From an uncultured Acidobacteriota bacterium (GTDB taxonomy: Bacteria > Acidobacteriota > Vicinamibacteria > Vicinamibacterales > UBA2999): 64,000 nt of DNA. The notes beneath the pieces are model-generated. The model was not told the origin of the DNA. It did not search any database and saw only the letters and a program-made list of their open reading frames with translations. Below, one piece after another: positions 33,973-37,358 of the stretch (position 1 is the stretch's first letter; each line of letters begins with the position of its first letter). A program made the position numbers and the translations under genes. Where the stretch lies: NCBI GenBank assembly GCA_963815285.1, contig CAWFGB010000012.1:194777-258776 (forward strand), read 5' to 3'.

Positions 33973-34638
33973 ATGATCAAGTTACGAAGCATCGAGAAGA
34001 GTTACCGCCACGGATTGTCCCAGACCTTCGTGCTGCGCCGCATCAACGTGGACCTTCAGCAGGGCGAGTTCGTGTCGATCATGGGTCCCTCGGGCGCAGG
34101 CAAGAGCACCCTCCTCCACATCATGGGCATGCACGACAGCGCGTGGACCGGGGAGTACTGGTTGTTCGACGAGCCGGTGCACCAGCTCTCAGCGAAGGAT
34201 CGCATGCGGCTGCAGAAGCAGCACGTCGGCTTCGTGTTCCAGAGCTATCACTTGCTCGACAATCTGACCGTCTACGAGAACATCGATCTGCCGCTGTCGT
34301 ACCGCGACGTGAAGAAGTCGGAGCGCCAGGGCATGGTGGCCGACATCCTCGACCGCTTCAACATCGTCGGCAAGAAGGACCTCTACCCTAATCAGCTGTC
34401 GGGTGGACAGCAGCAGCTCGTCGCCATCGCGCGCGCCGTGGTGGCCAAGCCTAACCTGATCCTCGCCGATGAGCCGACCGGAAACCTTCATTCGGATCAG
34501 GGCCGCGAAATCATGGAATTGTTCAAGCGCCTGAACGATGCTGGCACTACGATCATTCAGGTGACTCACTCCGAGGTAAACGCGGCGTACGGGCAGCGCA
34601 TCATCAAGCTCAAGGATGGGTGGGTGGTCGAAGAATAG
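33973..34638 (+). CDS. Second MacB/LolD-type ABC ATP-binding protein, no adjacent permease of its own
   Basis: Walker [10 protein letters not shown], signature [14 protein letters not shown], Walker [12 protein letters not shown]. The start was set to the ATG at 33973 ([11 protein letters not shown]). The stop is 2 nt before the next gene's ATG. Confidence 0.85.
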
Positions 34639-34640
34639 CC

Positions 34641-36035
34641 ATGCTCACTGAAGCACCACAGAAGACCAGTTCGTCCAGAAGCGAGCCGGCGCCGCGCATT
34701 CTCATCGGGGATGACCAACCTGACGTGCTGGAAGCGCTGCGCCTGCTGCTCAAGCCGGAAGGCTATCTGATCGACACGGCCGCCTCCCCGCAGCAACTGC
34801 TGCGCGCGATGGAGTTGAAGGACTACGACGTCGTCCTCATCGATCTGAATTACACGCGTGACACGACCTCGGGCGAGGAAGGCCTGGATCTGCTCCAGCG
34901 GATTCACACGGCGGACGAATCGCTCCCAGTGGTGGTCATGACGGCATGGGGCTCGGTCAAGGTTGCCGTCGAAGCGATGAGGCGTGGCGCCCGCGACTTC
35001 ATCCAGAAGCCGTGGGAGAACGAGCGGCTGCTCTCGATCATCCGGACGCAAACGGAACTGGGCCGGGCGATTCGGCGCGGGCGGCAGCTCGAGGCCGCCA
35101 ATCAGGCGTTGATGGCTGACGGGCATTCGCCGCTCCTGGCGGAGTCCGGCGCGATGCGCCCGGTCCTCGACATCATCGCCCGCGTCGGTCCCTCCGACGC
35201 CAACGTGCTGATCACCGGCGAGAACGGCACCGGCAAGAGTCTAGTGGCGCAGGCGCTGCATGCGGTGTCGCCGCGCGCCAACCGGCCGATGGTGACCGTC
35301 AACGCCGGCGGGATGGCCGAAGGCGTCTTCGAGTCCGAGCTGTTCGGGCACATGAAGGGTGCGTTCACCGACGCCAAGGTCGATCGGGTTGGGCGTTTCG
35401 AGCTCGCCGACAACAGCACGTTGTTCCTCGATGAGATTGCGAACGTGCCGCTCAGTCAACAGCAGAAGCTGCTGCGCGTCATCGAGACCGGCGAGTTCGA
35501 ACGGCTCGGCTCCTCCAAGACGCGCAAGGTCAACGTCCGTCTCATCTCGGCGACCAATGCCAACCTCAACGGGGAAGTCGAGTCCGGGCGGTTCCGGCAG
35601 GACCTGCTCTTCCGATTGAACACCATCGAAGTGCACCTTCCACCGCTGCGCGATCGCCGGGAAGACATCCCGATGCTCGGCCGGCACTTCCTGCGACTGC
35701 ACGCGCAGCGCTATCGCAAAACCATCTCAGGGTTCGATCCGGCGGCGATGCAGGTGTTGCTCGACCATCGCTGGCCCGGCAACGTCCGCGAGCTCGACCA
35801 CGCGGTCGAACGCGCGGTGCTTATGTCGCAAGGCAGCACGATTCGCAACACCGATCTGGGACTGCGCACCGAAGGCGCCAGCAGCGCGCGGCTCGAAGAC
35901 ATGAGCCTCGAAGATGTCGAAGCGTTTTTGATCAAGAAGGCCATGGCTCGCTACGGCAACGTCAGCCAGGCGGCACGTGCGCTGGGCCTGTCGCGCAGCG
36001 CCCTCTACCGCCGCCTCGAACGCTACAAGCTCTAG
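34641..36035 (+). CDS. Sigma54-dependent response regulator (NtrC family: REC + AAA+ + Fis-type HTH)
   Basis: Receiver domain (RILIGDDQPDV...VVLIDLNY...), AAA+ Walker A GENGTGKS, sigma54-contact loop KGAFTDA (a GAFTGA variant) and a C-terminal HTH GNVSQAARALGLSRSALYRRLERYKL. Confidence 0.9.
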   Translation: MLTEAPQKTSSSRSEPAPRILIGDDQPDVLEALRLLLKPEGYLIDTAASPQQLLRAMELKDYDVVLIDLNYTRDTTSGEEGLDLLQRIHTADESLPVVVMTAWGSVKVAVEAMRRGARDFIQKPWENERLLSIIRTQTELGRAIRRGRQLEAANQALMADGHSPLLAESGAMRPVLDIIARVGPSDANVLITGENGTGKSLVAQALHAVSPRANRPMVTVNAGGMAEGVFESELFGHMKGAFTDAKVDRVGRFELADNSTLFLDEIANVPLSQQQKLLRVIETGEFERLGSSKTRKVNVRLISATNANLNGEVESGRFRQDLLFRLNTIEVHLPPLRDRREDIPMLGRHFLRLHAQRYRKTISGFDPAAMQVLLDHRWPGNVRELDHAVERAVLMSQGSTIRNTDLGLRTEGASSARLEDMSLEDVEAFLIKKAMARYGNVSQAARALGLSRSALYRRLERYKL

Positions 36036-36041
36036 CCCACC

Positions 36042-37358
36042 GTGCGGCGACTGACCCACGACACACAGGTATTTTTGCTGGCGCTGGCGGCCGGGCTGCC
36101 CGGCGCCGCGACGTCGATGATCATCTTGTGGACCGGCGACTACACGCCGAAGGCCCAGTGGACGCTGACTGTGCTCATCGTCGGGTGCCTGCTCGGATTT
36201 GCCGCGTCGATCCGCAGCCGGGTCGTGCTGCCGCTGCAGACGGTCGCCAACCTGCTGGCGGCCATGCGGGAGGACGACTTCTCCATTCGCGGACGAACCG
36301 CGGATCCGGAGGATCCGCTCGGCGCCGTGCTCATCGAGATCAACGAACTGGCCGCGACGTTACACGAGCAGCGCCTGGGCGCCGTCGAGGCCACGGCGCT
36401 GCTGCGCACGGTGATGGAGCAGGTCGACGTCGCGTTGTTTGCCTTCGATCCGGGCGAGCGGCTGCGCATCGTGAACCGCACCGGCGAGCGGTTGATCGGC
36501 CGCAGCATGGAACAACTCCTCGGGCGCACGGCGGAGGAACTCAACGTCACCGACTGGTTCGGCGATGTCCCGCGTGTGGTCGATCTGTCTCTGCCCGGCG
36601 GCAACGTGGGACGCTGGGAAGTGCGCCGGACCACCTTCCGGCTCGGCGGGCTCCCTCACGATCTGCTCGTGCTGTCCGATGTCAGCCGTCCGCTGCGCGA
36701 GCAGGAACGCCAGGCGTGGCAGCGGTTGATTCGTGTCATCGGACACGAGCTTGGCAATTCGCTTGGCCCGATCAAGTCCATTGCCGGCAGCCTCGAGACG
36801 CTGCTGCAGCGCAATCCGCCTCCCGAAGATTGGCGTGACGACATGACGCGCGGCCTGCAAGTCATTGCGTCGCGCAGCGAATCGCTCAGTCGCTTTACCG
36901 CCGCGTACGCGAGGCTCGCACGCTTGCCGGCGCCCAAGCTCGCCCCCGTGGTGCTCAAGCCGCTGCTCGTCAAGATTGCCGATCTCGAAAGCCGCGTGCC
37001 GGTAGCGGTGCGCCCGGGCCCTGACCTCACCGTGGAGGTCGATACCGATCAGATCGAGCAGCTGTTGATCAACCTGATTCGCAACGCCGCCGACGCGTGT
37101 CTCGAAGTGGGCGGCGGGTCGGTCACGATCGGCTGGCGTCGCACACGTCATGGCACCGACATCTGGGTAGACGATGAGGGGCCGGGCTTGTCGAACACCA
37201 CCAACCTGTTCGTGCCCTTCTTCACGACCAAGCCAGGCGGGTCGGGCATCGGCTTGGTGCTCTGCCGGCAGATTGCTGAAGCGCACGACGGATCGCTGAA
37301 GCTCGAAAACAAGCCCGAAGGACGTGGCGCGCGCGCCACACTGACGCTTCCGCTGTAG
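36042..37358 (+). CDS. Sensor histidine kinase (2 TM with about 9-residue outer loop, HAMP, PAS, HisKA, HATPase_c)
   Basis: TM1 VFLLALAAGLPGAATSMIILW, loop TGDYTPKAQ, TM2 WTLTVLIVGCLLGFAASI. H-box VIGHELGNSLGPI, and the ATPase G-boxes DDEGPGL and GGSGIGL. GTG start 6 nt after the regulator's stop. Confidence 0.85.
   Translation: MRRLTHDTQVFLLALAAGLPGAATSMIILWTGDYTPKAQWTLTVLIVGCLLGFAASIRSRVVLPLQTVANLLAAMREDDFSIRGRTADPEDPLGAVLIEINELAATLHEQRLGAVEATALLRTVMEQVDVALFAFDPGERLRIVNRTGERLIGRSMEQLLGRTAEELNVTDWFGDVPRVVDLSLPGGNVGRWEVRRTTFRLGGLPHDLLVLSDVSRPLREQERQAWQRLIRVIGHELGNSLGPIKSIAGSLETLLQRNPPPEDWRDDMTRGLQVIASRSESLSRFTAAYARLARLPAPKLAPVVLKPLLVKIADLESRVPVAVRPGPDLTVEVDTDQIEQLLINLIRNAADACLEVGGGSVTIGWRRTRHGTDIWVDDEGPGLSNTTNLFVPFFTTKPGGSGIGLVLCRQIAEAHDGSLKLENKPEGRGARATLTLPL

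Follow-up and report, generated by a model that had tools for sequence, protein, structure and literature searches.

A stretch of 64,000 nucleotides from an uncultured Acidobacteriota bacterium (contig CAWFGB010000012.1, positions 194,777 to 258,776), here called the window, carries six genes at 29437-37358. They probably act as one functional unit, a MacB-type efflux system with its own sigma-54 two-component system at the 3' end. Such a module is a widespread and uncharacterised form of two-component efflux-pump control. All six genes are on the + strand, and their coordinates come from the listing of open reading frames (ORFs) and its translation. We named the domains with Pfam and NCBIfam scans of the window proteins. 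The permease is an ADOP. This family, the Acidobacterial duplicated orphan permeases, is called 'orphan' for lack of adjacent ATPase genes. The genes and the candidate control elements 5' of them are the following.

29230-29244, + strand: candidate enhancer (upstream activating sequence) GTCCCAGAAACGGAC, an imperfect palindrome GTCC-N7-GGAC, recognized by its recurrence upstream of adaptor genes
29291-29303, + strand: site TATCAATATGTTG with the integration host factor (IHF) consensus, between enhancer and promoter, from sequence inspection
29320-29335, + strand: sigma-54-type -24/-12 promoter TGGCACAGCCTTTGGA, read as TGGCAC-AGCCT-TTGGA, from a consensus scan
29437-30699, + strand: periplasmic adaptor, a MacA/HlyD-like membrane fusion protein of the HlyD/RND type (HlyD_D23, HlyD_3, TIGR01730)
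30710-31411, + strand: NBD1, an ATP-binding cassette (ABC) ATPase of the MacB/LolD/DarD type (ABC_tran, E 1e-34)
31418-33829, + strand: ADOP duplicated permease of 803 amino acids, with two MacB_PCD and two FtsX domains in a single chain (TIGR03434, Pfam)
33973-34638, + strand: NBD2, a second MacB/LolD-type ABC ATPase paralogue (Pfam, orthologue grouping)
34641-36035, + strand: activator, an NtrC-family enhancer-binding response regulator with REC, AAA+ sigma-54 and HTH_8 domains (Pfam)
36042-37358, + strand: histidine kinase with a transmembrane (TM) hairpin, a HAMP-like region, PAS, DHp (H235) and CA (Pfam, hydropathy, alignment, AlphaFold2)

A first-pass annotation of this DNA had described a MacA-MacB-ADOP efflux operon followed by a packed triad of ABC ATPase, NtrC-family activator and kinase. 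Both descriptions hold. Pfam and NCBIfam identify the adaptor, NBD1 and the ADOP, and the ORF, Pfam and NCBIfam results agree on the triad. Its spacers are 2 nt between NBD2 and the activator (34639-34640) and 6 nt between the activator and the kinase (36036-36041). The spacer between permease and NBD2 measures 143 nt (33830-33972) in the window and 7 nt in the related locus L002.

The adaptor scores 114 bits against TIGR01730 (cut-off 94.9). The permease is a clear ADOP member, with 911.2 bits against a cut-off of 622.3 for TIGR03434 and model positions 1-803 covered. It is the sole ADOP of the window. NBD1 has canonical catalytic motifs throughout and always lies 3' of the adaptor gene (36 orthologues). 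Its orthologues are 72-95% identical across phyla (73-94% among genome loci), whereas the permeases are 27-56% identical across loci. An adaptor, a MacB/LolD-type ATPase and a MacB_PCD/FtsX permease together make a predicted MacB-type (type VII ABC) pump.

The activator shows matches to Response_reg (83.6 bits), Sigma54_activat (209.6 bits, E 3e-62) and HTH_8 (49.6 bits). Its sigma-54 contact loop is GAFTDA, a variant of GAFTGA, in 75 of 79 orthologues. Passages of one published work list GAFTDA among the loop variants expected to keep activation, with DVU2106 as a GAFTDA regulator (PMC4641369).

We examined the neighbourhood of related kinases, scanning one genome per species. The scan gave at least 597 relatives, and the best 80 were annotated. 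These belong to Acidobacteriota (Vicinamibacterales, Pyrinomonadaceae, Terriglobia, Bryobacterales), Gemmatimonadota and Verrucomicrobiota. The complete six-gene order is identical in two relatives, whose kinases are 79% and 83% identical to that of the window, and their flanks are not alike. The activator gene is immediately 5' of the kinase gene in 71 of the 74 loci whose sequence reaches far enough. One or more transporter components are present within 10 kb of this pair in 32 of the 36 loci with flanks of 8 kb or more on each side (ADOP in 27, NBD2 in 23, adaptor and NBD1 in 19 each). The other four have no transporter gene within 10 kb. The expected linkage between the triad and the efflux genes is then confirmed for the kinase-activator pair. 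However, it does not extend to the ATPase as a fixed neighbour, directly before the activator in 19 of 38 loci.

The gene order itself differs among lineages. Besides adaptor-NBD1-ADOP-NBD2-activator-kinase, we observed ADOP-ADOP-NBD2-ADOP-activator-kinase and, in Verrucomicrobiota, activator-kinase-adaptor-NBD1-ADOP-NBD2-ADOP. The locus L024 has a divergent layout of regulators and transporter operon. Eight loci (L005, L033, L035, L044, L045, L047, L051 and L074) present adaptor-NBD1-NBD2-activator-kinase with no permease in the string. Thalassotalea and Paraglaciecola carry a five-gene cluster of adaptor, ATPase, duplicated permease of 803-805 amino acids, activator and kinase. The Thalassotalea ganghwensis kinase homologue is a distant member, with 37% identity. 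With this gammaproteobacterial version, the module is found in four phyla, the others being Acidobacteriota, Gemmatimonadota and Verrucomicrobiota. Clustering of all unannotated ORFs from 78 loci gave no further conserved partner. What it recovered was synteny of local extent and, in five loci of Verrucomicrobiota, a small membrane ORF.

Promoter, enhancer and predicted regulon

The promoter TGGCACAGCCTTTGGA is the only sigma-54 match with at most one mismatch in the 64-kb window. Matches with up to two mismatches are no commoner there than expected by chance. The site had been called near-consensus before. The single mismatch falls on the canonical C of the -12 element, which is G here (GG-N10-GG). 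Close relatives have TTGA at -12. Among 50 module-associated promoters, the base after TTG is A in 19, G in 15, C in 11 and T in 5. A lineage-specific preference at -12 may account for the non-C bases.

A TGGCAC-N5-TTG element is located 20-120 nt 5' of the adaptor start codon in most loci. At 9 or more of 10 matches, TGGCAC-N5-TTGC occurs in 13 of 31 adaptor-upstream regions of 500 nt, against 1.5% of random 500-nt windows drawn from the same loci (binomial p 4e-16). Two more perfect sigma-54 sites lie just past the 500 nt.

The enhancer takes the form GTCCC-N5-CG(G/A)AC, or that of palindromic relatives, at a fixed spacing in each clade. From enhancer to -24 there are 89-90 nt in the window, L001, L002, L005 and L006. 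Bryobacterales/Terriglobia have a distance of 78-80 nt and Verrucomicrobiota one of 111-115 nt. Between the two elements, TATCAATATGTTG matches WATCAANNNNTTR exactly, which we take to be the IHF consensus. This site is kept with one or two changes in L001, L002, L005 and L006, and no IHF-type site was seen in loci more distant than these four. In the gammaproteobacterial clusters, TCCCA-N5-TGGGA is present twice, followed by TGGCAT-N5-GTGC or TGGCAT-N5-TGGC.

Counted loosely over all loci, pairs of enhancer-like and sigma-54-like elements showed no excess (116 against a shuffle mean of 102), and we discarded this count. The signal is carried only by the stricter matches, the fixed spacing and the position relative to genes. 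Enhancer and promoter are also present 5' of NBD2-ADOP-ADOP-activator-kinase strings (L017, L084) and of unlinked activator-kinase pairs.

We also made a scan in the opposite direction, starting from the motif. Metagenome contigs were searched for GTCCCNNNNNCGRAC-N(60-80)-TGGCACNNNNNTTG, and 80 of at least 120 matches were examined. A homologue of a module gene lies downstream in 50 of the 69 matches with usable downstream DNA, mostly at less than 150 nt. These genes are ADOP (26), adaptor-NBD1 (15), NBD2 (3) and, in 6 cases, a related receiver protein. The divergent side of these matches shows a module gene once in 69. Of the 19 matches with no module gene downstream, 18 gave ORFs, which are heterogeneous and were read as background. 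Given 50 against 1 in 69, the enhancer-plus-promoter signature marks module genes specifically, including many ADOPs with their own promoter. The regulon thus appears to include many separately promoted ADOPs. Together with the eight permease-less strings, these ADOPs suggest that the module supplies ATPases and control for dispersed permeases.

The sigma-54 output proposed in the first-pass annotation is therefore strongly supported as a prediction, by the enhancer and -24/-12 element before efflux genes in Acidobacteriota, Gemmatimonadota, Verrucomicrobiota and Gammaproteobacteria and by the motif scan. A computational study from 2025 points in the same direction. In the passages searched, it reports predicted sigma-54 promoters 5' of COG0577 and COG1136 genes in Opitutia, and of COG0577 also in Bacteroidia and Gammaproteobacteria (PMC12316311). 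The same passages describe an enrichment before FtsX-like permease genes, and in Opitutia before their ATPase genes, and call it the first such link. They do not contain the term 'Acidobacter', and the kinase-activator pair, the enhancer motif, the missing sensor domain and the two ATPase paralogues are not described in them.

We propose the following sequence of events for the unit. The kinase would be held in the inner membrane by its two-helix hairpin, without a periplasmic domain. It would autophosphorylate at H235 and then phosphorylate the receiver domain of the activator. The phosphorylated AAA+ activator would bind the enhancer at 29230-29244, while IHF at 29291-29303 would bend the DNA. 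The activator would then remodel the sigma-54 holoenzyme at 29320-29335, opening the promoter. The transcript is expected to cover adaptor, NBD1 and ADOP, and probably runs on into NBD2, activator and kinase. Such read-through into the regulators would produce positive autoregulation. Support for autoregulation comes from the 7-nt gap between permease and NBD2 in L002, and from the enhancers and promoters before activator-kinase strings (L017, L084) and before unlinked pairs. MacB-type pumps expel amphiphilic compounds from the periplasm or the outer leaflet, and this pump would presumably do the same.

Several points weigh against the six genes as a single sigma-54-controlled unit. The canonical -12 C is replaced in 39 of the 50 module-associated promoters, and sigma-54 recognition is therefore not certain. 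No rpoN gene was seen in the 64-kb window, although no search aimed at it was made. An unrecognised promoter or terminator could be hidden in the 143 nt before NBD2, so co-transcription here is deduced from the relatives. The pump has no TolC-like outer-membrane channel in the window, as judged with the channel gene of L043 as sole query. Finally, the ORFs of the relatives were annotated through BLAST with the window's own proteins within 10-kb flanks, and related genomes are non-independent samples.

In the gap 33830-33972, reading by eye and the pair scan gave no second sigma-54 promoter or enhancer, and no terminator-like site is present. Over 28900-39200, scanning with the sigma-70 consensus gave no match. 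Only L043 and L075 have a TolC-like channel gene, placed between permease and activator, and the channel partner of the window's pump may be encoded elsewhere in the genome.

The leaders of the adaptor genes show further features. In the window, a tandem repeat of GGAACCTT (3.6 copies, 29400-29428) ends 8 nt short of the adaptor start codon. The leaders of L001, L002, L005 and L006 lack it. These four and the window conserve a short motif, CGTCTAAG at 29378-29385 in the window and CGTCTAAC in L002. It is placed 25-55 nt 5' of the adaptor start codon, and in each leader a very short upstream frame could end in it (GTC TAA). The motif may represent a leader peptide or an RNA element, or be due to chance.

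In the Verrucomicrobiota loci L058, L062, L064, L066 and L083, the small conserved ORF lies between a perfect sigma-54 promoter and the adaptor gene (for example, 11537-11887 in L062). Its stop-to-stop frames have 116-140 codons, and a hydrophobic C-terminal stretch suggests a membrane segment.

A response regulator with REC and PP2C/SpoIIE domains follows the same enhancer and promoter in L159 (about 6300-7453), L090, L097, L112, L139 and L164. Its receiver is 50-61% identical to that of the activator. The shared elements and the similar receiver suggest that the kinase family may feed a second, phosphatase-type output. No gene of this kind is present within the 64-kb window.

The kinase and its input

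The kinase had been described with two N-terminal TM helices, a short linker and no periplasmic domain. Hydropathy, AlphaFold2 and a 48-member alignment agree with this topology. Hydropathy places TM1 at about 9-30 and TM2 at about 39-58, with the linker TGDYTPKA. The AlphaFold2 model, built on 54 homologues, shows helices at 6-31 and 36-76 with a four-residue turn between them (predicted local distance difference test, pLDDT, 88-93). Taken over the two methods, the outer loop has 4-8 residues. A two-helix hairpin with a very short loop is present in all 48 aligned diverse kinases (35-58% identity). A substantial extracytoplasmic domain, which had been named as fatal to the proposal, was looked for in the kinase and not found.

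After the hairpin, the model continues with a helix-connector-helix of HAMP-like form, a PAS beta-sheet at 130-213, the DHp helices and CA. This agrees with the HAMP and PAS assignment of the first-pass annotation. Several kinase homologues have a Pfam HAMP match, and PAS, at about 116-215, is recovered by profile and by model. However, the single-sequence PAS score is under the Pfam cut-off (E 3.7e-4). The family profile matches the PAS-DHp-CA part of ThkA (3a0r, E 1e-37) from position 120 and VicK from position 39. The alignment also shows PAS residues that are invariant across the family, which counts 1472 cluster representatives at E <= 1e-30.

With this topology, the input would be perceived in the membrane or in the cytoplasm. 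A pump-independent input, by way of the conserved PAS domain or of bilayer state, comes near to an even chance. Direct contact with the pump, similar to Bce modules, is a tentative choice that we consider rather doubtful. The remaining weight goes to unknown partners of the kinase.

In the Bce-like proposal, the kinase lacks an input of its own. The TM hairpin of the kinase would dock on the ADOP and read the pump cycle, and pump activity would set expression. The outer loop of 4-8 residues, found in all family members examined, is consistent with this. So is the pattern of conservation. Conservation is lowest in the loop (11% mean pairwise identity) and in TM2 (18%), whereas HAMP, PAS, DHp and CA reach 34-48%. 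Such variation speaks against a conserved ligand site in this part and is compatible with co-evolution of the hairpin and the fast-evolving permeases. The linkage of kinase and transporter is near-obligate in four phyla, and the ADOP contains FtsX-type permease domains, as does BceB. On the other hand, the conserved cytoplasmic PAS domain with its invariant residues offers an alternative input, and BceS has no PAS domain. The stoichiometry is also unfavourable. One kinase is found per zero to about five adjacent ADOP paralogues, and the 10-kb flanks are free of transporter genes in four of the 36 fully covered loci. Unlinked kinase-activator pairs exist, and the regulon seems to hold many separately promoted ADOPs. 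Weighing both sides, we regard Bce-like sensing as possible but less likely than not.

A variant would accommodate the dispersed ADOPs. The linked adaptor-NBD1-ADOP could be the sensing pump and the dispersed ADOPs the effectors. Two-transporter systems of the Bce type occur in Staphylococcus aureus, where BraDE and VraDE are combined. Extended to the whole module, this would give a sigma-54-wired counterpart of Bce in diderm bacteria. The hairpin would sit on adaptor-NBD1-ADOP and signal how active this pump is, one enhancer motif would induce the dispersed ADOPs, and NBD1 and NBD2 would be shared among them. We hold this scheme as speculative, on the unlikely side.

The second ATPase

NBD2 is 45% identical to NBD1, and the orthologues of the two split cleanly into groups of 40 and 36 sequences. 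Two changes are fixed in 100% of the NBD2 group. Next to the signature motif, LSGGQQQL replaces LSGGQQQR (R to L). In the D-loop, at the dimer interface, GNLH replaces GNLD (D to H). To our knowledge, this combination is unusual among MacB/LolD-type ATPases. Walker A, Q-loop, signature, Walker B with the catalytic Glu and H-loop are all intact.

The first-pass annotation had taken NBD2 for a permease-less ATPase that belongs to the regulators. Neither part of this claim is supported. NBD2 lies 143 nt 3' of the permease here and 7 nt in L002, therefore it is not really permease-less. Its placement follows the permease genes. NBD2 is immediately 5' of the activator in 19 of 38 loci and elsewhere among permease genes in the other 19. 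When the regulators diverge, it remains in the transporter operon (L024), and in Verrucomicrobiota it is found between ADOPs, downstream of the regulators. It is the first gene behind enhancer and promoter in L017, L084, L123, L130 and L166. Conversely, it is absent from the five-gene gammaproteobacterial clusters and from L008 and L012, despite the same kinase-activator family.

These placements bear on the idea of a permease-less signalling ATPase coupled to the kinase. The spacing in the window, with the activator 2 nt away and the permease 143 nt away, and the position directly 5' of the activator in 19 loci would fit such a role. The 19 further loci among ADOP genes, the layouts of L024 and Verrucomicrobiota, and the absences in Gammaproteobacteria, L008 and L012 speak against it, and we consider it highly improbable. 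Because its position is variable, it stays with the transporter genes and it is dispensable to the kinase-activator family, NBD2 is best read as a transporter ATPase and not as a sensing part.

As a transporter ATPase, NBD2 would either power ADOP permeases alone, as a homodimer, or partner NBD1. Both ATPases are present in 25 loci, NBD1 only in 9 and NBD2 only in 13 (some of them cut by the 10-kb flank). From the single-paralogue loci, each paralogue appears able to act alone. A stricter alternative makes NBD1 and NBD2 an obligatory heterodimer on the asymmetric fused ADOP, with NBD2 as the second ATPase subunit of the pump. The 25 loci with both genes are compatible with it. The NBD1-ADOP-NBD2 order recurs in Acidobacteriota and Verrucomicrobiota irrespective of where the regulators lie, and the fixed changes of NBD2 affect the D-loop interface and the flank of the signature, with catalytic motifs intact. 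Nevertheless, NBD1 is alone in 9 loci and in the gammaproteobacterial clusters, and NBD2 is alone in 13. In L017, the promoter is followed by NBD2-ADOP-ADOP with no NBD1 within reach. An obligatory heterodimer is therefore unlikely.

Relation to known systems and neighbouring genes

The module is assigned, from the sequences of its parts, to the NtrC-type sigma-54 two-component class, to the MacB/type VII ABC pumps and to the ADOP family. Functionally it resembles an efflux pump under two-component control, and it may operate in the manner of a Bce module. With BceRS-BceAB, the flux-sensing modules for antimicrobial-peptide resistance in Firmicutes, it shares a two-TM kinase with a very short outer loop, a linked FtsX-domain permease with a separate ATPase, and the pump as regulated target. 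However, the regulator here is a sigma-54 enhancer-binding protein (REC, Sigma54_activat, HTH_8) and not of the OmpR type, which acts at sigma-70-type promoters. A PAS domain is present in the kinase, whereas a Bce kinase would have no cytoplasmic input domain beyond the linker to DHp. In place of a BceB-type protein, with ten TM helices and one large extracellular domain, the module has an ADOP with two MacB periplasmic domains and an adaptor, and the hosts are diderm phyla. According to a review (PMC11009047), Bce modules are a feature of Firmicutes. In these modules, signalling depends on the transporter and on its ATP hydrolysis. Four of the six Bce features that we listed do not hold here (regulator class, permease class, absence of PAS and Firmicutes host), and we do not class the module as Bce.

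Compared with MacAB-TolC of E. coli and Salmonella, the adaptor, the MacB/LolD-type ATPase and the MacB-core/FtsX permease are alike. In contrast, the ATPase here is a separate polypeptide with two paralogues and the permease is a fused duplicate. The query with the L043 channel found no TolC-like gene in the window, and control is through a sigma-54 two-component system. MacAB is controlled by PhoPQ. The ADOP family in turn differs in its usual context. Here and in many related loci, two ATPases, an adaptor and a regulator pair are adjacent to the permease.

Two NtrC-type pairs are close in their architecture. In PilS-PilR from Pseudomonas, the NtrC-family sigma-54 activator receives its signal from a kinase that is embedded in the membrane and has no periplasmic sensor domain. 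The sensor-less kinase and the sigma-54 activator are common to both. PilS, however, has six TM helices, senses pilin in the membrane and targets pilin genes, whereas the module has two TM helices and an ABC pump as target. NtrY-NtrX is similar in its TM, HAMP, PAS and histidine kinase parts and in its NtrC-family partner. It differs from the module, which has two TM helices and a pump, not ntrBC, as its context. The N-terminal membrane domain of NtrY is longer.

Close kinase homologues are named Vicinamibacterales (Acidobacteriota) by their sources and carry the JGI label NtrY. This label is not supported, because the activator reaches 325 bits against the NtrX model NF051870, under the cut-off of 600. 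The activator scores higher for AtoC and ZraR than for NtrX, all under the respective cut-offs. The best curated match of the kinase, AtoS, stays at 107 bits, where the cut-off is 646.

The literature searched contains no experimentally characterised sigma-54/MacAB system, in line with the earlier remark that the arrangement is not known to be characterised. In soil Acidobacteriota, few transporter families have expanded as much as the ADOP permeases, and as far as we know the ATPases, regulators and substrates of these permeases are essentially unknown. The enhancer-plus-promoter signature is a concrete regulon predictor for ADOP, adaptor and regulator genes in metagenomes. NBD1 and NBD2 are candidate shared ATPases for the orphan permeases. 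Thalassotalea and Paraglaciecola are culturable carriers in which transporter-dependent sensing can be asked about outside Firmicutes. Should the kinase read the pump, logic of the Bce type would extend well beyond its presently assumed range and be wired with greater flexibility. Otherwise, the module would still represent a large family of switches for envelope stress or detoxification, so far uncharacterised.

The gene 3' of the kinase, at 37495-38904, was considered as a further member and rejected, since a related gene follows the kinase in L005 only (43% identity). The window protein has a zinc-ribbon-like N-terminus, a hydrophobic segment and a trypsin-like protease domain of the HtrA type, with no PDZ match. 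Its C-terminal region gave no confident family match. Directly 3' of this gene, a tandem repeat of GGGTGCGGCT (3.6 copies, 38907-38942) overlaps a terminator-like hairpin at 38922-38937.

The record of L005 (CAZNOC010000042.1) is titled 'uncultured Bifidobacteriaceae bacterium'. Its locus is Vicinamibacterales-like, with a kinase 78% and an NBD1 91% identical to those of the window, and the contig is probably mis-binned. Farther along the window, a tRNA gene on the - strand (41532-41605) is the only Rfam match at the gathering threshold.

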